From the sequence record NC_054910.1: a stretch of DNA of 64,000 bases, one strand, 5' to 3'. The translations under genes were made by a program, and so were the position numbers. Source of the stretch: Escherichia phage EcNP1. Below are positions 999 through 61,989 of the stretch, piece by piece; within the stretch, counting starts at the first letter, position 1; every line of letters starts with the position of its first letter. Below the pieces are notes generated by a model. That model was not told the DNA's origin, ran no database searches, and saw only the letters and a program-made list of their open reading frames with translations.

Positions 999-1963
999 TG
1001 TATTCTTTAGAGGAATTTAATAATCAAGCAATAAACGCAGATTTCCAACGTAATAATATGTTTAGCTGCGTTTTTGCGACAACTCCATCAACTAAAAGCT
1101 CTTCGTTGATAAGTTCAATTAGCAACTTTTCTTATAATAACTTGGGTCTAAATTCAGATTGGTTAGGATTGACTCAAGGCGATATTAATCAGGGAATTAC
1201 CACGCTAATTACTGCTGGCACACAAAAACTGATAAGAAAATCAGGAGTTAGTAAATATCTTATTGGTGCCATGAGTCAACGTACAGTTCAAAGTTTATTG
1301 GGCTCATTTACAGTTGGTACATATTTAATTGACTTCTTTAACATGGCATATAACTCATCTGGATTGATGATATATTCTGTAAAAATGCCAGAGAATAGAT
1401 TATCCTATGAAACTGACTGGAACTATAATTCTCCTAATATTCGTATAACTGGGAGAGAATTAGACCCTTTGGTTATTTCATTTAGAATGGATTCAGAAGC
1501 ATGTAATTATCGCGCAATGCAAGACTGGGTTAATGCTGTTCAAGACCCAGTAACTGGACTGCGTGCTTTGCCGCAAGATGTCGAGGCAGATATTCAGGTT
1601 AATCTTCATGCTCGTAATGGATTACCTCATACTGCAGTGATGTTCACCGGATGCATTCCAGTGTCAGTGAGCGCTCCTGAGTTATCATATGATGGAGATA
1701 ACCAAATAACTACATTTGATGTTACTTTTGCGTATAGAGTCATGCAGGCTGGAGCGGTTGATAGACAAGCTGCGCTTGAGTGGCTTGAATCTGCTGCTAT
1801 AAATGGCATTCAAAGCGTTCTCGGAAATAGTGGAGGCGTTACTGGACTATCTAATTCGCTTTCACGACTTAGTAGATTAGGAGGAACTGCGGGAAGCATT
1901 TCAAACATTAATACTATGACGGGAATTGTCAATTCGCAAAGTAAAATATTAGGAGCAATATAA
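998..1963 (+). CDS. 54: baseplate tail-tube initiator gp54
   Basis: 321 aa (T4 gp54 is 320 aa); position 48-54 next to alt as in T4; followed by a strong terminator. Confidence 0.7.
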   Translation: MYSLEEFNNQAINADFQRNNMFSCVFATTPSTKSSSLISSISNFSYNNLGLNSDWLGLTQGDINQGITTLITAGTQKLIRKSGVSKYLIGAMSQRTVQSLLGSFTVGTYLIDFFNMAYNSSGLMIYSVKMPENRLSYETDWNYNSPNIRITGRELDPLVISFRMDSEACNYRAMQDWVNAVQDPVTGLRALPQDVEADIQVNLHARNGLPHTAVMFTGCIPVSVSAPELSYDGDNQITTFDVTFAYRVMQAGAVDRQAALEWLESAAINGIQSVLGNSGGVTGLSNSLSRLSRLGGTAGSISNINTMTGIVNSQSKILGAI

Positions 1964-1967
1964 CAAT

Positions 1968-1997
1968 GGGGACCTTTCGGTCCCCATATTTTTATTT
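1968..1997 (+). terminator. intrinsic terminator after gene 54
   Basis: GGGGACC-TTTC-GGTCCCC perfect 7-bp stem followed by ATATTTTTATTT. Confidence 0.7.
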
Positions 1998-2282
1998 ACG
2001 GAATGAAATAAAAGCAGCAACTGAAGCAACTAAACTGTCTTCAATATAAACTTCAATTTTTACCGGAGCTTCTGACTCAAATTTACCTGTTACTACACCT
2101 TGGAAAATGCTTTCAGTCTGTTCTGGCTTTGAAAAATTTTCAGAAGGAAAAATTCCGAACTTTTTATCTGTTCCAAAAATTTTAATAAATTCATCGTAAA
2201 CTGCTTCATTAAAAGCGTTATCAGCAGGAATAACGCCTTCAACTACAAGTTCTTGACCTAAAAAGCGCAAAGAAGATTTCAT
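1992..2282 (-). CDS. hypothetical protein (96 aa)
   Basis: Track ORF between gene 54 terminator and alt paralog; preceded by an early-promoter-like element. Confidence 0.45.
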   Translation of the reverse strand: MKSSLRFLGQELVVEGVIPADNAFNEAVYDEFIKIFGTDKKFGIFPSENFSKPEQTESIFQGVVTGKFESEAPVKIEVYIEDSLVASVAAFISFRK

Positions 2283-2309
2283 TTTATGTTCCTCATGTTA
2301 TGTCAGTAA

Positions 2310-2344
2310 GATTATTATAACACAACACGAGGGACTTGTAAACT
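2310..2344 (-). promoter_or_regulatory. T4-type early (sigma70) promoter, copy A of a dispersed ~60-bp element
   Basis: On minus strand GTTTAC, ~18-nt spacer, TATAAT; flanked by imperfect 13-bp inverted repeat; coordinates approximate (+/-2). Confidence 0.5.
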
Positions 2345-4400
2345 ACATTTTGAACTTTTTAGACATTCCGTTGATATTAACCAAAGAAGCCAAGATTTGA
2401 GAAACTTCGTTTTCCTCTTCTTTTGATTCTTCTACAAGGAATTGGTTAAATCCAGTCATTGGACGAACTTCACCAGTTTCCATTAGATGGTCGCCATCAT
2501 ATACCGATTCTTCTAATTGTTCAGAAGGAGGAACGATTGTGCCTTCGATTAGATACTTGTTATAAGCAGTTTCTTTCATCATGTACGTACTCACTTTATT
2601 AATCTTCAGCAAAATTCCACGTGGTAAAATAACTTCAGCTTCTGATGGAAATCCTGATAAATGTCCTGGAACGATAACTTTGATTCGCTCAGCTCCTTTA
2701 ATTACCATACCCACGCTAGTTTCAGCATCTTCATTGGCATACGCAGAATGACTACCCATATGCATTAAATCTTCAGCGTCAACAGAACCTTCTCCTTCAC
2801 CAGAAAATACTGCACCGGAATCATCTAGAGCCATATAGTTTTTACCATACTCACCGAAGATATTTGGTTTAAGTGATGTGGATACGAAGTTCTTGAAATA
2901 GAACATTTTATTTTCAATATTATGACGTAAAGTTTTAAAGGTAACTTCTTGGCCACGGTAAAGCGTAGTTCCTGGAGGAAGAACTGATCCTTTGGCAAAA
3001 GCAGAATCCATCGTCTCGATGTGTTTAATAGCTCGTTCCATATATTCTTCACGAGTAGAATCCGGTTTACCTAAAAGGAACGAGTTCATTTCAACATATG
3101 AATCTGCACAATAATCTTCAATTACATCAGACTCAGCCTGAGTTAATCCTTTTGGAGTTACTTCAGTACTTGCATATTCATACGCTTGAGAAGCAGACTC
3201 ATTAATCAATTTATAAACGCCATTCATGACAAATTGAATAATAGCTACCTTTTCATCTGGCGTGGCTTTAGAACCTTTAACTAAATCATTGACGATTTTC
3301 TTAATAACATCAAAGCTATTAGAAATATTAATGTCAGCAAGATCGCTTAAAATTTTATCAGTTTTATAATCAAAAAATTCTTTATTCTTTAAATATTCTT
3401 GAGAACCTTGATATGTTATATCGCTCTGTAATTTAATAGATGGATCACGTAAACGCGCATGGGCCAATGCAATATGATTTCGGAAGCTTTCTAGTTCATA
3501 ATCACTAGATTTAAAACGAGAAGCACTCCTCATACTACCGATAGCTCCTTTGCTGAAGTTTGAACCAACCTGAATAACGCCGGAGTTCATTGGTCCTTCT
3601 GCTTTATATACTGGAACTTTAGATTCAAACTCTTGATATTTCTTAGCAGCGAAGCTATCACCCTGAAGTGAAGCATCGACAGTAGAGTATTGAGCTTGTG
3701 CTGCTAATCGACGACTAATTTTAGTTTTCTGAATAACAGCTTGATCCGTGCGCTTATCATTTTCTAAGGCAATAGAAGCAGCAACAGCAACAGCTTTAGG
3801 AACAGCATTGCCTGTTTTAACATCTACATAAACATCACCAACCTTTGATTCAACCTTTGTGAATAACTCAGTTGAAATAGGAGGTACACCTGGAATGTCT
3901 TCTAAATTGGCATTTTTACGGTAAACCATAATATATGCATACTTTTTATCATAATCCCAGATTTCCTTTAAAAGAACATATCGACCTGCTCCTTTAGTAC
4001 GTACTAAACGGTCGGCAATAACTTGCATTTGACGAGCAGCTCCATTTGTTTTGCTCTTTAGTACGCGGAATAAGCATGCATCAATTTTATACTGTTTCAT
4101 TGTTTGAAGAGCAGTATCAAAAACCGCATTAATGACACCAATTGGATTTCCACCTAAGTTTTTAAGTTTAACTAATGATAGCTTTTCATTGACACCTATC
4201 ATTACGATATGCATCATTTTATCGCCTGGCTTAACGTTTTTATTTGTATCACCGCCAGAGGTGTATGTACAAAATCTAAATCCAGGAAGCACGCTTTCTT
4301 CACCTGCTTGAATAGCAAAAATTTGAGGTATTTTATGCTTCGGGTTTAAGTTAACAACCGGCGCCGAAGCGCCGTCAAATAATTCTGTAATAAGTTCCAT
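2343..4400 (-). CDS. Alt-like mono-ADP-ribosyltransferase, paralog 2
   Basis: 685 aa; N-terminal ~230 aa collinear with the adjacent Alt (MELITELFD...); ART R-S-E motifs LYRGQ / FVSTSL / SEAEVILPRG; shared C-terminal YDGDHLMETGEV; central segment unrelated to paralog 1. Confidence 0.8.
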   Translation of the reverse strand: MELITELFDGASAPVVNLNPKHKIPQIFAIQAGEESVLPGFRFCTYTSGGDTNKNVKPGDKMMHIVMIGVNEKLSLVKLKNLGGNPIGVINAVFDTALQTMKQYKIDACLFRVLKSKTNGAARQMQVIADRLVRTKGAGRYVLLKEIWDYDKKYAYIMVYRKNANLEDIPGVPPISTELFTKVESKVGDVYVDVKTGNAVPKAVAVAASIALENDKRTDQAVIQKTKISRRLAAQAQYSTVDASLQGDSFAAKKYQEFESKVPVYKAEGPMNSGVIQVGSNFSKGAIGSMRSASRFKSSDYELESFRNHIALAHARLRDPSIKLQSDITYQGSQEYLKNKEFFDYKTDKILSDLADINISNSFDVIKKIVNDLVKGSKATPDEKVAIIQFVMNGVYKLINESASQAYEYASTEVTPKGLTQAESDVIEDYCADSYVEMNSFLLGKPDSTREEYMERAIKHIETMDSAFAKGSVLPPGTTLYRGQEVTFKTLRHNIENKMFYFKNFVSTSLKPNIFGEYGKNYMALDDSGAVFSGEGEGSVDAEDLMHMGSHSAYANEDAETSVGMVIKGAERIKVIVPGHLSGFPSEAEVILPRGILLKINKVSTYMMKETAYNKYLIEGTIVPPSEQLEESVYDGDHLMETGEVRPMTGFNQFLVEESKEEENEVSQILASLVNINGMSKKFKM

Positions 4401-4403
4401 GAT

Positions 4404-6500
4404 TTATCCTTGAACGAACTTGTAAGGCATGTTTGTAATATCTATGCAAGACGCAATAATTCCAAGAGATGATTCTACTTTCTGTTTAACGTTTGATGAA
4501 ACAAATGATGCAAAGTCAACTCTGTCTTCTATTTCAATATCACCTGTCATTGCAACTACTTCACCAGTTTCCATTAAATGGTCTCCATCATAAATTACTG
4601 ATTCGGTGAGTTCTTCTGTAGTCATAACTTCAGCTTGAATGAGTTTTGTATTATTAGATGTTGTTCCGTCATTATTAGAAGCATCAGTTATTTTATTAAC
4701 TTTGACCATCAATCCGCGCGGTAGAATAACTTCAGCTTCTGTTGCTATTCCGAGACTTCCTGGATATACAACATTAACTTTATGAGCTCCATCAATTGCC
4801 CATCCTATTTGAACTTTAACGTATTCAGGATTTTCTTTATACGCTCTTATTTCGTTTGGATTAATAGTTATTCCTTCTTCATTTTTATCAACTGTCAATT
4901 CATTACGAGCTTCTGGTTCTAAAAGACCAATACCAGCATGTGTAATTCCAAAACGTCCAAAAATGATAGGAGTTAAAGAAGTAGATACAAAATTTCTGAA
5001 ATAGAACACTTTATTTTTAACTAGTGCTTCGTATATAGGAGCAGTCATACTTTGAGCACGATAAACTGTAATGCCTTCTGGTATACGGTCACCATTTTCA
5101 AAAGCTGAATCTAAGTTATTTATAGCAGATTCAATTTCTTTTTCACTCATTACATCATATCGTTCTGGATTGTAGCGGCCTAAAAGAAGATTATTGATGT
5201 CAGTATATCCTGATCCACAATACTCTCTAATGCCGCGCTTTTGCGATGGAGTATATTTAGAACCATCGCGTGCAATGGTAATATCAATCATTGGACCTGC
5301 ACCAATTCCAGAAAAACTATAAATCATTCGTTTGAGGAATTTAGTTTTTGCTGCGTTCCAGGAATTTTTAGTTATTTCTTCCCAGACTTCATCTGGCTGT
5401 CCTTTACGGGTTTTATTATGTTTATCAAGCCATTTATCTTTGTATTCTTCAAAGAATTTATTAACAGCTGCTGCGTATTTCTCTAAACATTTTATTGAAG
5501 TAGTTGGTTCATTTTTAATCGCATTAAGAATTACATCTTTAATTTTTTCAGAAACTTCATTAACCTCACTTTTTGAAAAGAATTTATAGTCATAGTGAAG
5601 TTCATCTGCAGTTCCTTCAGCAATAATTTTTGCTGCCTTAGTTTTAGAAGCTAATGAATTAATTCCAAGCTTCATTTCTTCTGCTTCTGGAATTAAAGGA
5701 GCAGTAGCAGGTTTATTGAAATTAGCTGCAGTAGATTCATACTTCTGGAATAATTCGCTTTCAAATCTAGAAGATTCTAATGATTGACTTTGCGCAATTG
5801 CTCTACGGGAAATTTTAACTTTAACGATTACAGCTTGGTCAGAGCGTTTATCATTTTCTTGCGCAATAGATGCTGCAATTGCCTCATTTTTAGTTACTTG
5901 AGCACCAGTATCTTTATTGATATAAACATCGCCGACTTTTGATTCAACTTTAGTAAAGAGCTCGGTACTAATTTCCGGAACTCCCGGAATGTCTTCTAGT
6001 GATACATTTTTACGATGTATAAGAATATATGCATACTTTTTATCATAATCCCAGAGTTCCTTAAGAAGGACGTATCTGCCACCTGAACGACTACGGATAA
6101 GTCTATCAGCAATAACTTGAATTTGTCGAGCTTGACCAGCAGTTTTAGACTTAAGAATACGGAGCATACAGGCATCAATTTTATACTGACGCATCGTCTG
6201 CATTGCAACAGTAAAAACTGAATTGATATAATTAATTGGGCTTGGACCGAGACCTTTTAATTTAGCAATTGAACCTTTAGCAGTTAATGTAAAAGGAACA
6301 ATATGCATCATTTTATCGCCCATTTTTAAATCGCGATTAGTATCACCTCCAGATGTATAGGTACATAAACGAAAGCCTGGTTGTTCAATTGCGTCATCGA
6401 CATGAACTGAAAAAATTTGCGGTATTTTCTTCTTTGGATTTAAGTTTGTAATCGGAAGAGTAGTATCTTCGTCAAATAATTCTGTAATGAGTTCCATCAT
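4404..6500 (-). CDS. alt: Alt ADP-ribosyltransferase (head-packaged, injected)
   Basis: 698 aa (T4 Alt 682 aa); ART motifs VYRAQ / FVSTSL / TEAEVILPRG; position between gene 54 and gene 30 as in T4. Confidence 0.85.
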   Translation of the reverse strand: MMELITELFDEDTTLPITNLNPKKKIPQIFSVHVDDAIEQPGFRLCTYTSGGDTNRDLKMGDKMMHIVPFTLTAKGSIAKLKGLGPSPINYINSVFTVAMQTMRQYKIDACMLRILKSKTAGQARQIQVIADRLIRSRSGGRYVLLKELWDYDKKYAYILIHRKNVSLEDIPGVPEISTELFTKVESKVGDVYINKDTGAQVTKNEAIAASIAQENDKRSDQAVIVKVKISRRAIAQSQSLESSRFESELFQKYESTAANFNKPATAPLIPEAEEMKLGINSLASKTKAAKIIAEGTADELHYDYKFFSKSEVNEVSEKIKDVILNAIKNEPTTSIKCLEKYAAAVNKFFEEYKDKWLDKHNKTRKGQPDEVWEEITKNSWNAAKTKFLKRMIYSFSGIGAGPMIDITIARDGSKYTPSQKRGIREYCGSGYTDINNLLLGRYNPERYDVMSEKEIESAINNLDSAFENGDRIPEGITVYRAQSMTAPIYEALVKNKVFYFRNFVSTSLTPIIFGRFGITHAGIGLLEPEARNELTVDKNEEGITINPNEIRAYKENPEYVKVQIGWAIDGAHKVNVVYPGSLGIATEAEVILPRGLMVKVNKITDASNNDGTTSNNTKLIQAEVMTTEELTESVIYDGDHLMETGEVVAMTGDIEIEDRVDFASFVSSNVKQKVESSLGIIASCIDITNMPYKFVQG

Positions 6501-6533
6501 ATCCTCTCTAGTGTTTATTCTATTTATAAAATT

Positions 6534-6551
6534 AAAGGCCCGAAGGCCTTT
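6534..6551 (-). terminator. UUCG-tetraloop hairpin / terminator
   Basis: AAAGGCC-CGAA-GGCCTTT on plus strand, i.e. GGCC-UUCG-GGCC in minus-strand RNA, followed by U-rich tract. Confidence 0.55.
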
Positions 6552-6738
6552 AATAATCTAGTGGTAAGAGAGTACGGTATATTTCAAACTTCGGACCTTT
6601 TTCATAGGCATCAAATGTTTCTGTAAATTTATTATAAGCATATGCATCTACAAATTCAAGAACGATTTGTGATACAGAAGTAGAAACATCTCCACCTTCT
6701 TTTTGAGCAACGACAATTGTTTCTAAGTAAGCTTTCAT
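6550..6738 (-). CDS. hypothetical protein (62 aa)
   Basis: Track ORF, start overlaps ligase stop region; no recognisable motif. Confidence 0.45.
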   Translation of the reverse strand: MKAYLETIVVAQKEGGDVSTSVSQIVLEFVDAYAYNKFTETFDAYEKGPKFEIYRTLLPLDY

Positions 6739-8195
6739 AGACCAGTTACCTCATGAAAATCACCAAATACATCCTCGAATGTATTAGCTTTAGTTTTATC
6801 TTCACGTAAACGAATCGCAATTGGAAGAAATAATTTAACGTAATCAGTGCGGCCATCAGATTTTAACCAACCATTGCATTCGCACTCTAGAATTTTTCCA
6901 ATATAATAATTTTGGTTTTCCATAATGCGAGTACGGTCAAGTTCATGTGATTTTACACCAGCTTTATCTTTTAAACCTGAACCAGCGTTTACTTTAATTT
7001 TTCCGCATTCTGATTCAAGAATAAATCCACCTGCTTTAGTAGGGTCTTTACGGTGAGGATAAATTCCTACAATTTTTAAATCAACATCAATTACTTCTTT
7101 AAATTTATAGAGATTTTTTGAACGAGCATTTTCCCACAATCCATCGGTATTTTTGAGAATAATACCTTCAAGACCTCGGTCAATATATTTTTTATAAATT
7201 ACCTTAGCTTCATCTAGGTTATTTACTACCTGGTTTTCAATTAAAATTACTTTATCATATCCTGATGTCATTTGTTCTAGTTTAGAAAAACGTACATCAT
7301 ATTTTAAACGAAACGCCGGAAGACCGTATATTTCTACCAACGGGACATAATCCCAGACCTGAAACTTCATGCATTTGGCTTCTTTTTCAGAAATGGTTCC
7401 CTTTAAAGATTTATTGGCAATTCCATTAGAAGCAGTACGAGATTCAGCTACTTCGGCAAACTCTTTAGCTTTACTGATTTCAGGAGCATCAAAAAGAAAA
7501 TCTAGGCCTTCTGGTTCCTTTTCAACTTGCTCATGGTATACTAATTCGCCATCAATTAACACACCTTCTGGATGAATCTGGCGGGCTTCAGCAGTCATTT
7601 TGATTAACTCTTCCTTAAGAAGATCTAATCCTAGATATTCATTACCAGCTCGCGATAAAAGACGAACATCATCTAATTCATCGCCTCGGACTTCAGCAAA
7701 ACACCGAGCTCCATCTGCTTTTAACTGCGCAAAAGCTGGAAACTTGATATTCTTACTAATGCCTTTTTCATCATAAGAACTTGCCAGCATTTGAGGTTGT
7801 TCAGGAATTAAACCTGGCCAAACTTTGTTTGCAATAGATACTGAAGCACCACATTCAAGGTCTCGCATCATAACTCGACGCAAAACTTCAACATCATCCT
7901 TTTTACCATCGGTGATATATCCAGTTAATTCCTCAATTGCTGCATTGCCAGTTAATTTCCGAGTAGCTAACGTGAATTCAATGAAGTCAAGCATATCGGT
8001 AATAGTCAGCATTCCAAAACTCTGGGTAGCAATACCAGGTTTAGGCCATTTCTTGATATAATACTGTAACCCACGAGAATAAGTCAGACGATATACTCGT
8101 TTAAGCAATTCATTATCTTTATTCTTTTCAAGAATTGCTTGCTTCTGCTTAGTTGATCCGATAGATGCTATTTCATTCAGAATTTTAAGAATCAT
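6735..8195 (-). CDS. 30: ATP-dependent DNA ligase gp30
   Basis: 486 aa (T4 ligase 487 aa); adenylation motif KADGARC; T4-like N-terminus MILKILNEIASIGSTKQK. Confidence 0.95.
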   Translation of the reverse strand: MILKILNEIASIGSTKQKQAILEKNKDNELLKRVYRLTYSRGLQYYIKKWPKPGIATQSFGMLTITDMLDFIEFTLATRKLTGNAAIEELTGYITDGKKDDVEVLRRVMMRDLECGASVSIANKVWPGLIPEQPQMLASSYDEKGISKNIKFPAFAQLKADGARCFAEVRGDELDDVRLLSRAGNEYLGLDLLKEELIKMTAEARQIHPEGVLIDGELVYHEQVEKEPEGLDFLFDAPEISKAKEFAEVAESRTASNGIANKSLKGTISEKEAKCMKFQVWDYVPLVEIYGLPAFRLKYDVRFSKLEQMTSGYDKVILIENQVVNNLDEAKVIYKKYIDRGLEGIILKNTDGLWENARSKNLYKFKEVIDVDLKIVGIYPHRKDPTKAGGFILESECGKIKVNAGSGLKDKAGVKSHELDRTRIMENQNYYIGKILECECNGWLKSDGRTDYVKLFLPIAIRLREDKTKANTFEDVFGDFHEVTGL

Positions 8196-8461: not shown

Positions 8462-9300
8462 TAGAATGCTCCTTGAAAAATATTATCACCACTAGTAGGT
8501 CTATTATACAAATACTCTATGCCACCAGGTTTAATATAGTTCCATGTCTGAAACGGATGTGTCTGATATGGATGATATAGATGATTATAAGGATTTAATC
8601 CAAGCGTTCTCCAGGTAGTGTTCCAAGGAAAAGAATCGTTTTTAACCATCTTCTCAATTAAATCTTTTATAGCTTTTTCACTATCAAAACTTTCTTTATT
8701 TTCCTTCGGCGAAAAAAGCTTATTTTCTACATCATTCCATGTATAAACTCGCTGCGCAGTTTTTGGAATATTGTCACGCTCTCCTCGAGCCATCCAATAA
8801 ACTGGAACATTTAATATTTCACTCGCATGATCGCAGTGATGAGCGAGATCGTCAATATAACAAATTACGTTATATTTCTCTTTTGCCTTTTTGAACAGCT
8901 CTTCTTTTGAAGAATCATGACCACACATCATTACTTCTGAGAAGGCACCGGGAAAAAGAGCATTCAAATTAAATTGACGATTCAACAGAGCGTCAATAGA
9001 ATCACCCAATGCTGTAACAGCTACAAAATTATAATCTTCTTTTAATTTGTTAATTACACACAGGGCATCTTTATACGGAGACAAGTAACGAATAAAATCT
9101 GAACGATTGTATTTTTCAATTAACTTGACGCCAAGTTCTTCGTCACAATTAAAGAGTTTACCTGGAGAAATAAATTTCTCATCTTGGATCATTTTTAAAA
9201 TATGTTCTAATGGAAGATTATATTTTTGAGCAAAATAAGGAAGGCCTGATTGCCAGCTTAAACAAACTCCATCAATATCAGTTAAAATAGTTGGCTTCAT
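8461..9300 (-). CDS. HAD-superfamily hydrolase-like protein
   Basis: 279 aa; N-terminal ILTDIDGV matches HAD motif I (DxDGV). Confidence 0.55.
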   Translation of the reverse strand: MKPTILTDIDGVCLSWQSGLPYFAQKYNLPLEHILKMIQDEKFISPGKLFNCDEELGVKLIEKYNRSDFIRYLSPYKDALCVINKLKEDYNFVAVTALGDSIDALLNRQFNLNALFPGAFSEVMMCGHDSSKEELFKKAKEKYNVICYIDDLAHHCDHASEILNVPVYWMARGERDNIPKTAQRVYTWNDVENKLFSPKENKESFDSEKAIKDLIEKMVKNDSFPWNTTWRTLGLNPYNHLYHPYQTHPFQTWNYIKPGGIEYLYNRPTSGDNIFQGAF

Positions 9301-9761
9301 AGAGAGTCTCTTAATAGGTTTAACACATCAATAAATTCAGCTTCGGTTAGTATTGTATCATCTTTTGTTAGACCACTAGCCATGCTGTGCTTCAAAACTT
9401 TTCCTTTCGAGGCTTGTAATGCATCACGAAAGCCCCTGTTTTGGATCGCTGCTTCAAAATATGCATTTGTGTATAATTCTTTCCATGCTGGAGAGTATCT
9501 TGAAAATGGAACTCCAAGCCAGAACAACGTGCCACGGTCCTGAGCTCTAGCATAAGCTCGTCCAGCTTTTTGCGCGTCCAATCCGGACATCCCAAATATA
9601 CGTCTTTGCTGTTCAACATTTTTCACCTTACATCCTTGGAGGAATCCTTCGAGACCTCCAAATTGGATACCATCCATAACGAAAGGCCATTGGGCGAAAT
9701 TGCTTAATGCACATGATGGCCATCTAAAATTGCTTCTAATCTCTAGCTCAGACATTTTCAA
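9297..9761 (-). CDS. NADAR / YbiA-like (DUF1768) protein
   Basis: 154 aa; SNFAQWPFVMDGIQFGGLEGFLQGCK resembles the NADAR core SNF..PF..DG..F...E..FQ..K. Confidence 0.55.
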   Translation of the reverse strand: MKMSELEIRSNFRWPSCALSNFAQWPFVMDGIQFGGLEGFLQGCKVKNVEQQRRIFGMSGLDAQKAGRAYARAQDRGTLFWLGVPFSRYSPAWKELYTNAYFEAAIQNRGFRDALQASKGKVLKHSMASGLTKDDTILTEAEFIDVLNLLRDSL

Positions 9762-9954
9762 TACTTATAATTTCAACATCAGCCCAATGACCATAGCAAG
9801 GAAGACGAAATTCAATTGGCCAGTTAGGGTCCTTTTCTAATATAATAGACTTAACTTGCGGTTCTTCATGTTCATCGGTATACGGACCTTTATATGTTAC
9901 TTTATATGTAACCTTAATGTACTGAATTCCAAAAATCTTATTAATTATATTCAT
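9748..9954 (-). CDS. hypothetical protein (68 aa)
   Basis: Track ORF in overlapping co-directional array. Confidence 0.45.
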   Translation of the reverse strand: MNIINKIFGIQYIKVTYKVTYKGPYTDEHEEPQVKSIILEKDPNWPIEFRLPCYGHWADVEIISIENV

Positions 9955-10148
9955 ACTAATTCCTTTAATCCATAGATAGGAGATAATTCATCACCCATAC
10001 GAAGGTCTTCATTTCCATCTACCCAGGAAACAATATAAGCTTCTTTTATTTGAACGTCTCTCCATTTAAATGGAGGTAGAACCTTAGAAATTAATCCAGG
10101 TATACCGACTCCCTTTAATTCAACAGTTTGACCTAAAAAGAATTTCAT
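9951..10148 (-). CDS. hypothetical protein (65 aa)
   Basis: Track ORF in overlapping co-directional array. Confidence 0.45.
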   Translation of the reverse strand: MKFFLGQTVELKGVGIPGLISKVLPPFKWRDVQIKEAYIVSWVDGNEDLRMGDELSPIYGLKELV

Positions 10149-10486
10149 TAGAACCTCATCTGAAAACCGTGCGATTTAACATTACCGCCGCCAATGTCAG
10201 AAATGTTAATTTCACGCGCAATTGAAGGGTCAATGTCAATTTCACGATTGAGTTTAGTGATAGCTAGAGTATCACGCCCATTTACAGTACGGAACTCTAA
10301 GGGGCAGACTACATTGACGTAGTTTTTAATCGATTCACTGGTAGGTTGCAAATGAGCAGGAAGGTCTTTAGGCGCCTTAGAGAAAACTACTTCACAGAAA
10401 TTTTTGCGGGTATCAAAATAAGTAGTCATAAACACAGTATTTTCCTCAGTAAGGGGCCGAAGCCCCTGTTTTATTTTAAATATCAA
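10148..10486 (-). CDS. hypothetical protein (true start possibly internal Met near 10429)
   Basis: Track ORF; a GC hairpin with CGAA loop at ~10452-10470 lies inside the annotated 5' end, suggesting a later start. Confidence 0.45.
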   Translation of the reverse strand: MIFKIKQGLRPLTEENTVFMTTYFDTRKNFCEVVFSKAPKDLPAHLQPTSESIKNYVNVVCPLEFRTVNGRDTLAITKLNREIDIDPSIAREINISDIGGGNVKSHGFQMRF

Positions 10487-10841
10487 ATTCGTTAAGAACT
10501 ACATCAAAGATTGCTTCAAGATGCTCAGGTTTAGCTCTGTTACTCAGAATATGACGAATCCAAGTTTTAACCAGAAGCTTACGATTAACGCCGTTCCAGC
10601 AAGGATGGGTACCTAAATCACGTTGACGAAAATCATCATCTAATGCGATTTTAAAAGAAGAACCTTCTTTCGTGATTGAAACCGTGATGCCATTTTCAAA
10701 TCGCATATAAACGTAATTAGGAGTCATATACTGTTCAATTTCGCATACTGATCCATTTTGATGTTTCCAAAGGCAGATAGTATCAATAGAACCTGCAATA
10801 CCATTAGAAACATATTTACGTTCAAAGTTGATGTAGTTCAT
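10476..10841 (-). CDS. hypothetical protein (121 aa)
   Basis: Track ORF downstream of an early promoter. Confidence 0.5.
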   Translation of the reverse strand: MNYINFERKYVSNGIAGSIDTICLWKHQNGSVCEIEQYMTPNYVYMRFENGITVSITKEGSSFKIALDDDFRQRDLGTHPCWNGVNRKLLVKTWIRHILSNRAKPEHLEAIFDVVLNEFDI

Positions 10842-10867
10842 TTTTATTCTCCGAGATGTTTAATTGC

Positions 10868-10907
10868 GGTACAGGTATATAATATCATATCCTGTACCAA
10901 AGTAAAC
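10868..10907 (-). promoter_or_regulatory. T4-type early promoter with -10 inside an 8-bp inverted repeat
   Basis: Minus strand GTTTAC then GGTACAGG-(15 nt containing TATTAT)-CCTGTACC. Confidence 0.5.
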
Positions 10908-10909
10908 AA

Positions 10910-11242
10910 TTATTTTACTACTTTCCAGTGCTGCATGTCAAGTTTGCCAACTTTTTTCATCTTCTCAATTAAGCGTTCTGCACGTTGGCGAGCTGTAACA
11001 TAATACCATTCACCTAATTCATTTTGTTCAATTTTTCCAACGATTACTGTATTCAATTCATAAATCCAACCGGTAAAGAAATTATGAACTTGAATTGTAA
11101 AGGTGAAATCTGTTCCCATACCTTCTGTTGTTTCTACTTCAATAATATCACCTTCAACTGCCATTAAGAACCACATAGTTTCGTTATATTCACCATTGAA
11201 ACATTTAGCTTTAACCGCAGCGTTCAGATTAATCGTTTTCAT
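10910..11242 (-). CDS. hypothetical protein (110 aa)
   Basis: Track ORF. Confidence 0.5.
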   Translation of the reverse strand: MKTINLNAAVKAKCFNGEYNETMWFLMAVEGDIIEVETTEGMGTDFTFTIQVHNFFTGWIYELNTVIVGKIEQNELGEWYYVTARQRAERLIEKMKKVGKLDMQHWKVVK

Positions 11243-11269
11243 TTTATTCTCCTTTGTTTGTGTAAGATA

Positions 11270-11299
11270 ATATTATCACAAAGGAACCATACTGTAAAC
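11270..11299 (-). promoter_or_regulatory. T4-type early promoter
   Basis: Minus strand GTTTAC + ~18 nt + TAATAT-like -10. Confidence 0.45.
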
Positions 11300-11321
11300 A
11301 ACTTTGTGCAATCTTTGGAAA

Positions 11322-11347
11322 ATAAAAAAGGACTCCCGAAGGAGTCC
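11322..11347 (-). terminator. intrinsic terminator (UUCG tetraloop)
   Basis: GGACTCC-CGAA-GGAGTCC on plus; minus RNA has GGACUCC-UUCG-GGAGUCC followed by UUUUUU. Confidence 0.65.
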
Positions 11348-11352
11348 TCAAC

Positions 11353-11529
11353 TTATGCTTTCTGCTTACCAAAACGAGAAGCATCATCTCGAAGAACCGC
11401 ACGTGCTCGGCGCATGATCTTCTCAACAGTTTGATTGATACGAGAGTTCGACCCACGCTTGTAGCCAGCGCGTTTAGAATCACCAACTTTCTTTTCAACT
11501 GCTTTCTTTGCTTTAGCTTGTTTTGCCAT
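11353..11529 (-). CDS. small basic protein (58 aa; track ORF extended to 11571)
   Basis: ATG at 11527-11529 gives MAKQAKAKKAVEKK..., Lys/Arg rich. Confidence 0.45.
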   Translation of the reverse strand: MAKQAKAKKAVEKKVGDSKRAGYKRGSNSRINQTVEKIMRRARAVLRDDASRFGKQKA

Positions 11530-11649
11530 TATAAATTCTCTTTTAAATGAAAATGCAGGACTTATTGGCATTGCCTGCGCAAGCCCTCAAGGGGAACATA
11601 GGTTTTTGAATATTTAACGACCAGGATAACCATAAACCCGTCATCATAC

Positions 11650-11898
11650 TTACTTCAGTGTTACCACAAAGTGACGAACTGCTTTTCGTGCGGCAGAAGC
11701 CAAAGGCTTAGCATATTTAAGTTCATCTTTTTCCTGAAGCTCAGCAGCTAATGCAGTTTGAGCAGGATTCAGATGTTTGAAATAACGCAGGATTTCAAGA
11801 GCTTCGGCTTCAACATCAATAGATGCGCCATAGTTTTCGTGACCATTATTCCATGCGTTTCGTTGCAGTTCAAGAGCGTGTTGTAATTGTTTAATCAT
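11650..11898 (-). CDS. rIII: lysis-inhibition accessory protein RIII
   Basis: 82 aa (T4 RIII 82 aa); position between 30.x genes and gene 31. Confidence 0.7.
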   Translation of the reverse strand: MIKQLQHALELQRNAWNNGHENYGASIDVEAEALEILRYFKHLNPAQTALAAELQEKDELKYAKPLASAARKAVRHFVVTLK

Positions 11899-12045
11899 TT
11901 AAAAATTCTCGTTAGAGATTAAAACTCGGTAGTCACGTTCTTCTGAATTTCATCTTCTTTCGACAGATCTCTCAGTTGTAGACTACCACGTAGAATTGTT
12001 CGGTTAACTTATTATTCCGACACCCAATTCATATTATTATTTATA

Positions 12046-12381
12046 TCACTTATAAAGACACGGAATAGCTTTATAGTGACAGGTAACGAATTTTTGTTTA
12101 ATTTCTTTTGGCTGCTTAAGTCCCAGAGCTACAAAAGGATGCGGAACGTTTCGAATTTGACCAACTGGAAGAGAAGTCAAATCACCAACTTCGCAGAAAC
12201 CTTCAGGAACATCAGGACCAACGGAGTGAACTACACACAGTTCAGGAACTTCACCTTGAACACGTTTACCGATAATAAGTCCTGATTCTGTAACTTCTTC
12301 ATCACCGGCTTGCGCAGGTTCAGAAACTAAAATAACGTATTCACCGACAGCACGAATTGGTAGCTGTTGTACTTCAGACAT
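12046..12381 (-). CDS. 31: co-chaperonin gp31 (GroES analogue for capsid folding)
   Basis: 111 aa (T4 gp31 111 aa); position upstream of rIII. Confidence 0.85.
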
Positions 12382-12437
12382 CGTTTTTCCTTTTTGTTAA
12401 CAGATGAATTAATAATAACAAATAATTCTTAAAGCAT

Positions 12438-12746
12438 TTATTTACCAATAAATTGAAGCAAATGCTCAACTTTCATACCATTAACGGAAATCAATTTGTC
12501 AATAGAAAAACCTCGCCATGCACCAAGCTCAACATCAAATACTGGAATCATATCAGTAGATTCTTTCCGAGTAGATTCAGTCAATTTACCGGTTTGCATG
12601 GTTGGCATAAAATCGGCATCACGAGTACCTTTCATAGTACGAATAGTACCATCAGACTTTTCAAAAACTATGTTTGAAATACCCATGGACAATTTAGTTT
12701 TCAAAATTTCACGAATTGCTACTTTTTGTTCAGTTGTCAGTTTCAT
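12438..12746 (-). CDS. hypothetical protein (102 aa, 31.1-like)
   Basis: Track ORF. Confidence 0.5.
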   Translation of the reverse strand: MKLTTEQKVAIREILKTKLSMGISNIVFEKSDGTIRTMKGTRDADFMPTMQTGKLTESTRKESTDMIPVFDVELGAWRGFSIDKLISVNGMKVEHLLQFIGK

Positions 12747-12983
12747 TTATTTACCTATTACAGTTTTAATATGGGTTGTTCCACGTTCTTTAAGAGTGGA
12801 AAGCAATTTTTGGCATTTTTCTAAATCAGATTTCCAACTATACGGCCTATCAATACTAGTCCAATCAGTTTTATAATACTGTTTCCATTTAGAGAAAAAA
12901 TACTTCTTATACTCTACAGCAAATGAAATGTTCTCATTAGAATAAGAACTAATTGCTGTGAGCTGTACCAAACGAAATTTCAT
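12747..12983 (-). CDS. hypothetical protein (78 aa, 31.2-like)
   Basis: Track ORF; start overlaps cd stop. Confidence 0.5.
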   Translation of the reverse strand: MKFRLVQLTAISSYSNENISFAVEYKKYFFSKWKQYYKTDWTSIDRPYSWKSDLEKCQKLLSTLKERGTTHIKTVIGK

Positions 12984-13564
12984 TATTCACCACAGAATTC
13001 GTTGATATTTTCCCAGTTTAACTTATTTAAGTTTTTCTTAGGAACATTAAACACTTCAATACCTGCATTTCGCAGAATATCATCCCAGCCAGGTTTATTT
13101 TTATCGTATGTTTCGCAATAAACCAGCTTTTTAATACCAGATTGAGCTATCGCTTTTGCGCAATCTGGGCAAGGAGAAAGTGTTACATACATAATAGCAC
13201 CTTCAATTGAAGAACCGTTTCGTGCAGCAAACAAAATCGCATTTAGTTCAGCATGAATTTCATTTTTAGACGACCATTCAGAGTGCGCGCTACGGTGTTC
13301 TTTCGCCAAGACAAAACGATCAGTTGAACCAAACGATACACATTCAGGCTTATGACCTTGAATGATAGTATGTTTAGGCTTATTCAGCAACCAGCCTTGT
13401 TCAGCAGCATAATCACAGCAATTCACACCGCCTGCAGGCGAACCGTTATATCCAGTAGAAATAATACGTCCATTCTTTTCAATTACTGCTCCTACCTTCC
13501 AGGAGCAACATTTGGATTCTTGTGATACTAAATATGCAATTTGAAGTACTGTACTCGCTTTCAT
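12983..13564 (-). CDS. cd: dCMP deaminase
   Basis: 193 aa (T4 Cd 193 aa); zinc-deaminase motifs HAELNAI and SPCPDC. Confidence 0.92.
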   Translation of the reverse strand: MKASTVLQIAYLVSQESKCCSWKVGAVIEKNGRIISTGYNGSPAGGVNCCDYAAEQGWLLNKPKHTIIQGHKPECVSFGSTDRFVLAKEHRSAHSEWSSKNEIHAELNAILFAARNGSSIEGAIMYVTLSPCPDCAKAIAQSGIKKLVYCETYDKNKPGWDDILRNAGIEVFNVPKKNLNKLNWENINEFCGE

Positions 13565-13899
13565 TTCATAATCACCAGATAAGCAGATTTAGCAGTTTCA
13601 ACACGATAAATTTCATGACGAAGTTTAGTTATACTTTTAATAACAGAACTAATTATATTCTGCCCATCTTTAAAGCGGTTTTTCTTATCAATAAAAATTG
13701 CGCCAACCATCTTTTTGTGAAGCTCAACTGGATACTTCGTCACAATAATAGCATCATACACAGAAGGATGAATACTATTCACTAGAGTATCATTCATTAA
13801 AGTTATTCTAATGAACTGAGCTGTTTCAGAATCAAGCGCTCTATGATCGCCAGTATCATTTTCAAGACAATTATCAATTATATCAGTTAAATTCATCAT
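13561..13899 (-). CDS. hypothetical protein (112 aa)
   Basis: Track ORF, 4-nt overlaps with neighbours. Confidence 0.5.
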   Translation of the reverse strand: MMNLTDIIDNCLENDTGDHRALDSETAQFIRITLMNDTLVNSIHPSVYDAIIVTKYPVELHKKMVGAIFIDKKNRFKDGQNIISSVIKSITKLRHEIYRVETAKSAYLVIMK

Positions 13900-14132
13900 A
13901 GTACGCCATACACCCTTTGTGCTTCAACTAATCCATCAAAATCCAATTTGAGATGTGTTATTTGGTCACCATCGCCTGGATTCACAATTACTAATACTGA
14001 ACGAGGAGTTTCGGTAATAACACGAACCGACGTTTCAGGAAATCGTTCAGAAACCTTATTTACCAATTCTTGAGCAAATAGTTTAACTTTTTCTTGGAAT
14101 TCTTTAACAGTAATTGGTTTTTCACTTAGCAT
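13896..14132 (-). CDS. hypothetical protein (78 aa)
   Basis: Track ORF. Confidence 0.5.
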   Translation of the reverse strand: MLSEKPITVKEFQEKVKLFAQELVNKVSERFPETSVRVITETPRSVLVIVNPGDGDQITHLKLDFDGLVEAQRVYGVL

Positions 14133-14653
14133 GTTGATCCTAGCTCCTTACTTTCAACGTTTTTAACTAATTTGACAGAAACTAATTCAGCATCTTGAGT
14201 AATCATTACCGGACCTTCTTCATACTCTTCAAGATATTCTAGAGCTTTCTTTTTAGCTTCTTCCTTCGTATCAGTTTGAGCATAGATATAAAACATACAA
14301 CCAGTAATACCTACTACTTTCCACTTAATTTCTTTATCAGTTTTAATTTCAAATTTACTAACAGAATCATCTTTTTGAACTTCTTCGAAAAAAGAATATT
14401 CTAACATATAAGCAATTGAAAATAACGGACTAACTTTATAGGATTCACCCATTACATCAACAGCTTTATACCAACAATCATCAATTTCGCGTTTAATGCT
14501 AATAACATTTTTCGCAGGATCTATTTTTACTTTAAATGAATTTTCCCCAATAAACTGGGCAATTCGTTTATTAGCCCCGCAAGTTTCATTAAAAATATCT
14601 TTATATCCAGCTTTAAAGCGATAAACCTTATCTTCTTCAAACCATTCGCTCAT
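14126..14653 (-). CDS. hypothetical acidic protein (175 aa)
   Basis: Track ORF downstream of an early promoter. Confidence 0.5.
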   Translation of the reverse strand: MSEWFEEDKVYRFKAGYKDIFNETCGANKRIAQFIGENSFKVKIDPAKNVISIKREIDDCWYKAVDVMGESYKVSPLFSIAYMLEYSFFEEVQKDDSVSKFEIKTDKEIKWKVVGITGCMFYIYAQTDTKEEAKKKALEYLEEYEEGPVMITQDAELVSVKLVKNVESKELGSTC

Positions 14654-14675
14654 TTCAATTTCCTCATTTGTTTTT

Positions 14676-14714
14676 GGTAGAGCTATAATATCACAACTCT
14701 ACCGTAAAGTAAAC
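14676..14714 (-). promoter_or_regulatory. T4-type early promoter with -10 inside a 7-bp inverted repeat
   Basis: Minus strand GTTTAC then GGTAGAG-(TATTAT region)-CTCTACC. Confidence 0.5.
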
Positions 14715-14716
14715 TA

Positions 14717-14992
14717 TTAAATTGCCTTGAATTCTGATGTCTGTGATTCAAAGCGAATATCGCCTTTGATGACTAGCTCAGCATCAAGACCGAATACGAC
14801 GATGATATGCGCGGAACCTGGATACAGCGTAATTGCAATAGAATCCACTTGGTCTGGAAGCAAAGCGTTCAATACATGAGTCACTTGAGCGTGGATTCGA
14901 AGTTCAGCTGCATTATCAAGCTTTTCAAACATGTTATTAGCGATAATTTGGCTAAACACTACTTCTACGATTTTAGAGTAAGTCGGAAACAT
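14717..14992 (-). CDS. hypothetical protein (91 aa)
   Basis: Track ORF. Confidence 0.5.
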   Translation of the reverse strand: MFPTYSKIVEVVFSQIIANNMFEKLDNAAELRIHAQVTHVLNALLPDQVDSIAITLYPGSAHIIVVFGLDAELVIKGDIRFESQTSEFKAI

Positions 14993-14994
14993 AT

Positions 14995-15195
14995 TTACCT
15001 CACATAATTTTCTTCAAGCCAATCAATAACATCCAAAGCGTTATCAAAAATTGAACCATCTACTTTGTCTTCTGTTTCATAATCAAGAACATCTAAGCCT
15101 ACTCTTCCATCTACAATAGGCCATAAACAAAATAGATATTTCTTTTCTTTTTCAATTTTATCACAAAGTCGATAAATCTTTTCTAGATTATTCAT
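14995..15195 (-). CDS. hypothetical protein (66 aa)
   Basis: Track ORF. Confidence 0.45.
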   Translation of the reverse strand: MNNLEKIYRLCDKIEKEKKYLFCLWPIVDGRVGLDVLDYETEDKVDGSIFDNALDVIDWLEENYVR

Positions 15196-15384
15196 AAGTT
15201 TTCCATGGTAAAGGCAGTTTAGTTTTCTTTACTGTTAGTTCAACATCAGGATTCTTTTCTCTTAATTTAAGACATTCCTCCCAAGCTCTGTTTTCACTAG
15301 TGAAAACACAAAATTGCCCATTACTAGTACCAACTAAACCGCTATTTACAATAACAATAGACCAAGTTTCATGATGCCAAGCCA

Positions 15385-15385
<1 letters not shown>
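15188..15385 (-). CDS. hypothetical protein (65 aa)
   Basis: Track ORF; start adjoins pseT stop. Confidence 0.45.
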
Positions 15386-16603
<1,218 letters not shown>

Positions 16604-60754: not shown

Positions 60755-61357
60755 TTATAGATTAAATCCTTCAAAATCAAGAGTATAGATAGTGTATGTT
60801 GAATACTTTTTATACTCATATCTATCTGCAATTCTAAATACACTTCCAGCTGGTATCATTACTTCTTGTTCATCTGAAACTAATTCCATATTACGATAGC
60901 GATGGCTATCTGGAAATTTAAAACTCGGACTATATTCTTTACAACGTAAAGCTTTTATAGCATACTCCTGGAAATTAAATACCATAGGAGCTTTGAATTC
61001 AAAAATAACTTGCGTGTTGTATTCTAATCCAGAAGCAAAATGCAGAGCTATATTTTTATCATATGAAGCTGATACTACTTTATCAAATGTAATAATATCA
61101 ATTCCTTGATTTAATACCTGCTTAGTCTCAACTGGAACACCTCTCCAAAGAGGTTTATCGTTTGGAACCAAACGAGATTTGATTATTTCATTTAACCAAG
61201 AATGATCGTCTGGCTTATTAGTAATACAATGAATTAAAAGTTCAATTTCAGATAAATTAAATCCTTCAGAAAGTAATTCTTCACGAATAGAAGCACGCAC
61301 CGATGCATCCATTGATTTGATTTTAAAATCTTTTAATTGCATTGCTGAATATTTCAT
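60755..61357 (-). CDS. modA: ModA-like ADP-ribosyltransferase
   Basis: 200 aa (T4 ModA 200 aa); ART-like elements LWRG, SASYD, QEVMIPAG. Confidence 0.65.
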   Translation of the reverse strand: MKYSAMQLKDFKIKSMDASVRASIREELLSEGFNLSEIELLIHCITNKPDDHSWLNEIIKSRLVPNDKPLWRGVPVETKQVLNQGIDIITFDKVVSASYDKNIALHFASGLEYNTQVIFEFKAPMVFNFQEYAIKALRCKEYSPSFKFPDSHRYRNMELVSDEQEVMIPAGSVFRIADRYEYKKYSTYTIYTLDFEGFNL

Positions 61358-61989
61358 TCAACTACCTCAATATCATACACTTTAAATGTTCCAAATGAAT
61401 CGTGTAATTTTTCTTTTGAAATAGAAGTTATTTTATACTTTCCAATTGGAATCATCCATTCTTGTTCACGTACAATCATCATTAAGTTATCAGTACGTTC
61501 TGAATCTAATCCATCAGTATCTTCATATGTATACTTAAACTCAGTATTAGGAGAAGAAAGTATAATATCGCTGATATGGTCAGAGTAATTAAAAGCTTTA
61601 TCAGTTTTTAAGCGAAATATTATTTCAGTGGAATATTCAACATAAGAAAAACCGCATGCTGTGTGCAAACTAGTAGTAAATGAATCTACTCTGTTCGTTG
61701 AAAACACTTCTCCAACTTGTAAATCTTTAATGAGTTCTTTTGTCGATTTTGATATACCACGATATAACTGATAAGGTGATTCAGTTAAATGCTTTTTAAC
61801 GATTTTATTCAACTGCCGATGAAGAGCTTCATTCTTTTTGGCTTCCATACATTGCCAAAGAACTGACTGTTCAAAGTCAGTAAATTTTTCACAGACCTTT
61901 TTATACATATCATATTGAAAATCAACACTTTCAGCTTTTATAGATAACTGTTCAACATCTGCAAGATTAATAATCATGATAGCCTCCAT
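61354..61989 (-). CDS. modB: ModB-like ADP-ribosyltransferase
   Basis: 211 aa (T4 ModB 207 aa); LYRG, FST, QEWMIPIG; tandem with modA. Confidence 0.65.
   Translation of the reverse strand: MEAIMIINLADVEQLSIKAESVDFQYDMYKKVCEKFTDFEQSVLWQCMEAKKNEALHRQLNKIVKKHLTESPYQLYRGISKSTKELIKDLQVGEVFSTNRVDSFTTSLHTACGFSYVEYSTEIIFRLKTDKAFNYSDHISDIILSSPNTEFKYTYEDTDGLDSERTDNLMMIVREQEWMIPIGKYKITSISKEKLHDSFGTFKVYDIEVVE

Follow-up and report, generated by a model that had tools for sequence, protein, structure and literature searches.

The best described relative of the proteins considered here is Alt of phage T4 (682 amino acids (aa), NP_049811), an ADP-ribosyltransferase (ART) of which each head contains about 40 copies and whose gene is non-essential (PMC9958956). 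The prohead protease gp21 trims T4 Alt at both ends: by mass spectrometry, cleavage after ITE-6 costs the protein 6 residues and cleavage after LTE-619 another 63 (PMC5694885; PMC9026906). The existence of Alt paralogs was already pointed out in 2006 (PMC1524935). Here we analyze two adjoining alt genes, designated copy A and copy B, in a stretch of 64,000 nucleotides (nt) from Escherichia phage EcNP1 (NC_054910.1), referred to as the window; the positions of their features are collected in Table 1. Copy B shares with T4 Alt the neighboring genes alt.1 and gene 30, a late promoter box, an upstream hairpin, the R-S-ExE catalytic residues, and the gp21 sites ITE-6 and LTE. The two proteins are 99.6% identical in the N-terminal domain (N-domain), 92% identical in the C-terminal propeptide, and 70% identical overall, but they represent different alleles, with 32% identity in the middle segment and 63% in the ART domain. 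Copy A is 42% identical to T4 Alt overall and 67% identical in the N-domain, and its middle segment cannot be aligned with that of T4 Alt. Where the window has the full-length copy A, T4 has two short open reading frames (ORFs), alt.-1 and alt.-2 (NP_049810 and NP_049809).

Tandem Alt-family genes also occupy the same locus, between the genes for ligase and gp54, in the Dhakavirus phages JS10, IME08, and SP18 ("alta"), in 04086, and in 44RR (ORF187c). The Alt arrays of other T-even-type phages comprise anything from 1 to at least 3 genes, and the A-type and B-type effector parts can be recognized across genera; the N-domains are 42–47% identical to those in the window, and a B-type ART domain is as much as 94% identical. 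The PF03496 catalytic domain is shared with the R-S-ExE mono-ADP-ribosyltransferases C3, iota (Ia), CDTa, VIP2, and Vis. These enzymes are bacterial exotoxins that are delivered through binary-toxin pores or secretion systems and, unlike Alt, have no Alt N-domain, gp21 processing, or capsid delivery. A parallel in organization is provided by the MuF-fused head effectors, in which a conserved head-associated N-terminal part precedes a variable C-terminal enzyme, often an ART of the Alt/VIP2 type, that is delivered with the DNA (PMC9503650; PMC5512222). The Alt N-domain, however, is not MuF, Alt has an additional C-terminal propeptide, and no immunity gene is apparent beside it. ModA and ModB are phage ARTs of the R-S-ExE type that, like Alt, act on host proteins of transcription and translation but, unlike Alt, consist of a catalytic domain only (∼200 aa), are products of early genes, and are made in the cell and not packaged.

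An initial annotation, made from the sequence of the window without database searches, had recognized copies A and B as neighboring Alt-type paralogs that both retain the R-S-ExE residues, and this assignment stands. In a full-length BLASTP comparison the two proteins show 42% identity, far more than chance would produce (E = 4e-166), both match Pfam PF03496 (ADPrib_exo_Tox; 73 bits for copy A and 129 bits for copy B, gathering score 23.4), and both match PHROG 802, "Alt-like RNA polymerase ADP-ribosyltransferase," from end to end (852 and 909 bits, respectively). The catalytic residues, located at YRGQ-481, STS-507, and EAE-587 in copy A and at YRAQ-479, STS-505, and EAE-587 in copy B, are 98–100% conserved in 62 Alt family members; the check for a copy without the catalytic Glu-x-Glu came out negative, both copies having EAE on alignment. 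The ExE signature suggests arginine specificity, as in T4 Alt. Together with ModA (60755..61357) and ModB (61354..61989), which match PHROG 832, "RNA polymerase ADP-ribosylase," the window encodes four proteins of the ART type, as had been proposed.

The relationship between the two copies differs greatly from domain to domain. In BLASTP comparisons of individual segments, the N-terminal regions (aa 1–238) are 67.6% identical (E = 1e-122), the ART domains (aa 413–631) 35% identical (E = 1.5e-38), and the C-terminal tails 42% identical (E = 4e-14), and the middle segments (aa 239–412/413) give no significant match (best E = 10). Since the ART domains are so strongly diverged, the N-domain is what copies A and B genuinely have in common. 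This Alt-specific domain of ∼230 aa is present in both copies, and close homologs carry a precomputed match to Pfam PF26846. No MuF head domain was found: the full proteins match only PF03496 in Pfam, and the N-domain alone has no MuF match at E ≤ 10 in a Pfam copy that was scanned without PF26846. At the same threshold Pfam gave nothing meaningful for the N-domain or for either middle segment, and NCBIfam gave no matches. There is no solved structure of an Alt protein, and the best sequence matches in the Protein Data Bank, CdtA and iota Ia at E ∼1e-4, were obtained with copy B only.

The pair is the majority state in Tequatrovirus and not an unusual arrangement. Escherichia phage vB_EcoM_Nami (MZ502380.1, genus Tequatrovirus) matches bases 1900–6800 of the window with 100% identity, and its record already annotates two adjoining "RNA polymerase-ADP-ribosyltransferase" genes. 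The part of copy A that is missing from T4 is found at a coverage of at least 80% and an identity of 92–100% in 400 phage records, and an intact copy A is present in about 400 of about 500 Tequatrovirus records; the whole locus is covered to at least 80% in 361. With the N-domain of copy A as a tblastn query, 395 records contain matches of at least 95% identity, typically two per Tequatrovirus genome. Carriers of the pair include T2, RB3, RB7, RB18, RB68, AR1, and PP01, and in the RB7 record the full-length copy A is labeled "alt.-2." Of the two circumstances that had been named as jointly telling against a special origin of the pair, middle segments homologous at the level of structure and a two-copy arrangement standard across the phage group, the second was found.

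T4 does carry a single alt, as had been stated, but only as a derived state. The interval between alt and alt.-3 in T4 holds alt.-1 and alt.-2, which in the T4 record are explained by an old duplication of alt's first part. On alignment, this stretch corresponds almost base for base to copy A over the first ∼347 nt (114 codons) and then over the last ∼20 nt. It lacks one A of an A-run (window 4250..4235), which amounts to a 1-nt frameshift, and the deletion junction falls within an imperfect direct repeat of 8 bp, CTAAA(G/A)AG, whose two copies in copy A, CTAAAGAG and CTAAAAAG, are 1,699 bp apart. The PHROGs of alt.-1 and alt.-2 (23015 and 15247) fit copy A, at 138 and 131 bits, better than copy B, at 78 and 70 bits. 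Because the alignment, the repeat junction, and the PHROG scores all favor copy A, alt.-1 and alt.-2 are the remnant of a full-length copy A that underwent a 1,699-bp deletion and a 1-nt frameshift. Copy A is thus orthologous to the gene whose T4 remnant is alt.-1/alt.-2, and copy B, which carries the commoner effector allele, is orthologous to T4 alt. A contiguous T4-type deletion allele occurs in 91 of 500 records (∼18%), among them wild isolates such as FJ1, ESh30, Lutter, fPS-2, and Lv5cm; the deletion of copy A is a natural minority allele and not a laboratory artifact.

Where it is retained, copy A appears to be a working gene under strong purifying selection. In five Tequatroviruses (synonymous divergence, dS, ∼0.24) the ratio of nonsynonymous to synonymous substitution rates (dN/dS) is 0.040 overall, 0.012 for the N-domain, 0.073 for the middle segment, 0.043 for the ART domain, and 0.031 for the C-terminal tail. 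Even the middle segment is therefore constrained inside a lineage (dN/dS 0.07–0.085). Pseudogenization of copy A was considered as a candidate explanation and rejected on these values.

Motifs for gp21 are found in both copies at positions homologous to the sites in T4 Alt: ITE-6 and LTE-632 in copy B and ITE-6 and LEE-631 in copy A, all of which fit the pattern L/I-x-E. Among the 62 Alt family members, Glu6 is 96% conserved and Glu631 98% conserved. The YDGDHLMETGEV element (within YDGDHLMETGE), which had been listed among the motifs of the catalytic domain, starts 2 or 3 residues past the C-terminal site in both copies. Because it is placed just after the position homologous to the T4 Alt site LTE-619 (PMC5694885), it lies outside the catalytic domain, as part of a conserved C-terminal propeptide. 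The confidence of AlphaFold2 (AF2) models, expressed as the predicted local distance difference test (pLDDT), is low in this region, being <50 over aa 629–675 of copy A and low from aa 652 onward in copy B.

The arrangement of expression signals is also close to that of T4. The region upstream of T4 alt has the same hairpin and the same TATAAATA box, with one extra GAATA in the spacer to the ATG. The junction between the stop codon of copy B and the start codon of copy A, TAAATCATG, is identical to that between alt and alt.-1 in T4. Pattern and promoter scans found no promoter-like box belonging to copy A itself, which sits 3 nt behind copy B and downstream of the late promoter, and on the minus strand a terminator scan detected no terminator-like site separating copy B from copy A. 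A second exact TATAAATA box occurs inside copy B (5117–5124, minus strand), listed under its middle segment; boxes of this sequence are about as frequent in the window as expected by chance (8 found, 9.5 expected), and the internal one may mean nothing. An in-frame ATG one codon upstream of the start of copy B, at 6500, would extend its ORF to 698 aa (4404..6500).

We consider it likely that the window contains the standard Tequatrovirus alt locus, comprising two old and functional paralogs of an injected ART that differ in their effector parts and are probably both packaged in the head. Each protein would consist of an N-terminal propeptide of 6 residues, an N-domain of ∼230 aa, an effector part made up of a helical segment of ∼175 aa and the R-S-ExE ART domain, and a C-terminal propeptide of ∼55–65 aa. 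The two genes would be transcribed late on a single transcript. By analogy with T4 Alt, (i) both proteins would enter the prohead core and be trimmed by gp21 after ITE-6 and after the LxE motif at residue 631 or 632, and (ii) both would leave the head together with the DNA and modify host proteins by ADP-ribosylation ahead of all phage gene expression. Because the entire effector part differs between the copies, they most likely have different host targets or recognize their targets differently.

The effector parts are also the units in which alleles of the locus differ. When T4 alt is compared with copy B, the nucleotide identity is ∼97% over nt 1–720, falls to 27–80% (mostly 40–75%) over nt 721–1860, and returns to 83–98% from nt 1861 to the end, so that the divergent block comprises the middle segment and the ART domain and is bordered by the N-domain and the C-terminal propeptide. 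In Tequatrovirus, 333 records have the block of the Nami/T2 type in copy B and 175 have that of the T4 type. All four combinations of the state of copy A with the copy B allele exist: (i) Nami has an intact copy A and a Nami-type copy B, (ii) AR1 an intact copy A and a T4-type copy B, (iii) T4 a deleted copy A and a T4-type copy B, and (iv) Lv5cm and SG1 have lost copy A and have a Nami-type copy B, the T4-type deletion being directly seen in Lv5cm. In Escherichia phage 04086, a Dhakavirus, the ligase-gp54 locus (record positions 8995–15546) contains three alt genes in tandem. The second of these is 46% identical to copy B in the N-domain, 65% in the middle segment, 94% in the ART domain (mostly 90–97% at the nucleotide level), and ∼50% in the C-terminal tail (amino acid identities except where indicated). 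The ART block was thus exchanged recently between Dhakavirus and Tequatrovirus, with borders at the edges of the domain. The third gene of 04086 is the A-type ortholog; as recorded, its 5' region seems to be disrupted, with an ambiguous base, an unannotated gap at 12980–13720, and overlapping partial N-domain matches at 12984–13553 and 13512–14145.

Comparison between genera reverses the picture of a shared frame formed by the N-domain and the ART domain, which the initial annotation had drawn. The N-domains are similar within a genome or genus, at 67% identity between the Tequatrovirus copies A and B and 63–66% between the Dhakavirus paralogs, and dissimilar between the genera, at 42–47% whatever their type. 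A-type proteins from the two genera are 46, 55, and 60% identical in the middle, ART, and C-terminal tail regions, respectively. The N-domains thus cluster by genus, and the middle segment, ART domain, and C-terminal tail by paralog type across genera. Recent gene conversion of the N-domain between copies A and B was considered as the cause of their 67% identity and rejected, as synonymous sites are saturated throughout (proportion of synonymous differences, pS, 0.5–0.8). For the same reason, any homogenization of N-domains or import of effector parts would be old, with the exception of the recent ART transfer. The sole oddity is a 32-nt exact word common to copy A (window ∼3930–3961, gene nt 440–471) and copy B (∼6024–6055, nt 443–474) in the WDYDKKYAYI region of the N-domain; given saturated synonymous sites and ∼65% nucleotide identity its chance probability is roughly 1e-3, and it could represent a short conversion tract or a constraint at the nucleotide level.

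With a conserved delivery part and an effector part that varies between close genomes, as in the copy B alleles and in the 94% identical ART domain within a 46% identical frame, the locus resembles polymorphic toxins and MuF-fused ARTs in design. Many metagenomic proteins match the N-domain alone or the ART domain with the C-terminal tail alone, and among the matches in BFVD the Acinetobacter phages ZZ1 and Henu6 have proteins annotated as "split RNA polymerase ADP-ribosylase"; this suggests that Alt modules can exist as separate genes. A more far-reaching interpretation is possible, but on balance doubtful: that most T-even phages inject two different ARTs, the second of which is hidden in T4 by the deletion; that copy A has host targets of its own (e.g. 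a component of defense or translation rather than the α subunit of RNA polymerase); that the Alt locus is a polymorphic effector system in which cassettes of helical segment plus ART are swapped between genera into genus-specific delivery frames; and that the strongly constrained N-domain might have a role beyond packaging.

The absence of similarity between the middle segments raises an alternative to the divergence of two old paralogs, namely that recombination following the duplication replaced the central ∼175 aa in one of the copies by an unrelated sequence, the N-domain and ART frame being retained. Such a replacement would account for the failure of BLASTP (E = 10) and of profile comparison, in which hhalign gave a probability of 11–15% between A-type and B-type middles, barely above the reversed controls (0.3–1.8%), and recombination at domain borders is known in the Alt family. 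The statement that the middles are unrelated in sequence thus stands insofar as no similarity is detectable; their length is ∼175 aa and not the 200–250 aa given. However, the flanking ART domain (35%) and C-terminal tail (42%) are deeply diverged as well and have the same pattern by paralog type, and because all three regions follow paralog type across genera they behave as one old unit and not as something inserted into a common frame. The middle segment is, moreover, highly variable in every branch of the family, at a similar length. In each of 62 diverse Alt proteins, 119–195 residues separate the N-domain from the ART domain, with column identities of 0–0.22 as compared with 0.45–0.67 in the flanking domains, and the 62 middles form about 36 groups with no links between them. 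An all-against-all BLASTP search of these 62 gave two separate families and 30-odd singletons, with no path from A to B. The A-type profile links only to a third group (96%, hhalign), and the middle of copy A has BLAST links to A-type relatives only, e.g. JS10 P0132 at 48%. The copy B middle is 65% identical to that of 04086 gene 2 and 32% identical to that of T4 Alt, and the latter value demonstrates that drift of this extent is possible between orthologous middles. Hypervariability of the middle is thus a trait of the whole Alt family rather than of copies A and B alone.

The predicted structures also argue against replacement. Both middles are all-helical in the AF2 models, with pLDDT values of 75–93 in copy A and 73–91 in copy B beyond residue ∼250. 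The helices comprise residues 250–260, 273–281, 286–295, 301–318, 328–355, 362–374, and 381–409 in copy A and 248–260, 272–280, 282–302, 309–327, 335–362, and 369–399 in copy B. Their order and lengths are very similar, and in both proteins the last helix has 29–31 residues and runs into the helices of the ART domain. With Foldseek against BFVD, distant Alt proteins align over their full length, but the template modeling (TM) scores are low since the domains are placed differently. Replacement of the central segment therefore seems unlikely to us, and the proposal in the initial annotation of central segments swapped within a shared frame is not supported. Its wider proposal, duplication followed by diversification of the part that recognizes the target, is a reasonable inference in that the copies are paralogs and are most diverged between the N-domain and the catalytic core; what does not hold is that this makes the arrangement special.

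Two further alternatives concern individual parts of the favored reading. The first is that the N-domain is a second enzyme or a ligand-binding module, with a GNAT-like fold for acyl-CoA, which would make Alt bifunctional; in the AF2 model of copy B it is an α/β domain with pLDDT ∼70–88. We regard this as rather improbable. The second is that copy A is an active ART that is neither packaged nor injected and acts either intracellularly at a late stage of infection or on proteins of the phage. Packaging has been demonstrated only for T4 Alt, the ortholog of copy B, and ModA and ModB prove that phage ARTs can work from inside the cell. Copy A has nevertheless kept the MELITE propeptide, a highly constrained N-domain (dN/dS 0.012), the LxE motif, and the C-terminal propeptide, and it lies, with no promoter-like box of its own, immediately behind copy B under the late promoter, so that this alternative is very improbable. 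That copy A is a redundant or decaying duplicate heading for the T4 state is scarcely credible: its loss in T4 and in ∼18% of records causes no obvious harm and T4 alt is itself dispensable (PMC9958956), but an intact 685-aa frame in about 400 records, the low dN/dS, the retention of all catalytic and processing residues, and the presence of the A-type ortholog in Dhakavirus effectively rule it out.

Several considerations weigh against the preferred interpretation of two packaged enzymes with different effector parts. The production, packaging, cleavage, and activity of copy A are argued by analogy with T4 Alt; a literature search yielded no study of the second Alt paralog, no virion proteome containing copy A, and no biochemistry on it. 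The suggestion of different targets derives from the divergence of the middle segment and of loops in the ART domain. A packaging role of the N-domain is assumed, the short propeptide being regarded as the capsid-targeting sequence in T4, and the N-domain, which is retained on maturation and is under tighter constraint than the ART domain, may do something else. The clustering of N-domains by genus could be due either to old gene conversion or to imported effector parts, the synonymous sites between copies A and B being saturated. Finally, the AF2 models are of moderate quality, with mean pLDDT values of 75.6 and 75.7 and predicted TM scores of 0.57–0.60 from a shallow alignment of 21 sequences.

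The order of genes on the minus strand, DNA ligase (gene 30), alt.1, copy B, copy A, and alt.-3, followed by the convergent baseplate genes 54 and 48, is the same as in T4. In a promoter and terminator scan, alt.-3, the ortholog of T4 alt.-3, has a strong σ70-like promoter-like site of its own (2342..2314, 11/12 with TG) and a bidirectional terminator (1966–1987), and it is a neighbor of the Alt pair, not a member of it. In T4, C-terminal extension mutants of alt.-3 escape the CmdTAC defense system (PMC11618068). Elsewhere in the window, an ORF of 248 aa (59893–60639, minus strand) lies immediately downstream of modA.

Table 1. Positions of genes, protein domains, and sequence signals of the alt locus in the window
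Feature	Position	Strand	Remarks
DNA ligase, gene 30	6735..8195	minus	
alt.1, 62 aa	6550..6738	minus	Pfam PF24647 Phage_blade, 103 bits; between ligase gene and copy B
Hairpin AAGGCC-TTCG-GGCCTT	6535-6550		Directly after alt.1 stop codon; precedes late promoter box
T4-type late promoter box TATAAATA	6521..6528	minus	24 nt upstream of copy B start (pattern search)
alt copy B, 697 aa	4404..6497	minus	From MELITE Met at 6497; stop codon 4404-4406; ortholog of T4 alt by position
Copy B N-terminal propeptide (aa 1-6, ITE-6) and N-domain (aa 7-238)	5784..6497	minus	ITE at aa 4-6
Copy B helical middle, B-type (aa 239-413)	5259..5783	minus	
Copy B ART domain (aa 414-632)	4602..5258	minus	R480, S505-T-S507, E587-A-E589; ends at predicted gp21 site LTE-632
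Copy B C-terminal propeptide (aa 633-697)	4407..4601	minus	Contains YDGDHLMETGE; homolog of the 63-residue piece that T4 Alt loses after LTE-619
Copy B stop/copy A start junction TAAATCATG	4398..4406	minus	3 nt non-coding; AAGGA upstream of copy A ATG
alt copy A, second Alt paralog, 685 aa	2343..4400	minus	Intact; stop codon 2343-2345
Copy A N-terminal propeptide (aa 1-6, ITE-6) and N-domain (aa 7-238)	3687..4400	minus	
CTAAAGAG, upstream copy of 8-bp imperfect direct repeat	4054..4061	minus	Codon 114 of copy A
Copy A helical middle, A-type (aa 239-412)	3165..3686	minus	
Copy A ART domain (aa 413-631)	2508..3164	minus	R482, S507-T-S509, E587-A-E589; ends at predicted gp21 site LEE-631
Copy A C-terminal propeptide (aa 632-685)	2346..2507	minus	Contains YDGDHLMETGE; LEES at aa 629-632 aligns with T4 LTE/S (slash, cleavage site)
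CTAAAAAG, downstream copy of 8-bp imperfect direct repeat	2355..2362	minus	Codon 680 of copy A
alt.-3 (DUF5498), 96 aa	1992..2282	minus	Next gene downstream of copy A; PF17602 at 215 bits; aligns with T4 alt.-3 region

Seen as a genome feature, the pair of genes is ordinary and had been annotated before. The present comparison adds the exact origin of T4 alt.-1 and alt.-2, the population frequencies of the alleles, evidence that copy A is functional and retains all motifs for packaging and processing, and a mosaicism at domain borders that includes the transfer of an ART domain across genera. Knowledge of injected phage ARTs comes from T4, which belongs to the minority of ∼18% of its genus that has no second Alt gene, whereas about four fifths of its sequenced relatives, including T2, many RB phages, and many isolates that are candidates for therapy, keep a second enzyme that is intact and under strong constraint. 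The occurrence of an ART domain with 94% identity inside a frame with 46% identity marks exchangeable parts, which is useful for the engineering of capsid-delivered proteins. If copy A is packaged and active, the takeover of the host in the first seconds of infection would differ between T4 and most T-even phages, and this difference could contribute to their differing behavior on hosts and toward defense systems.

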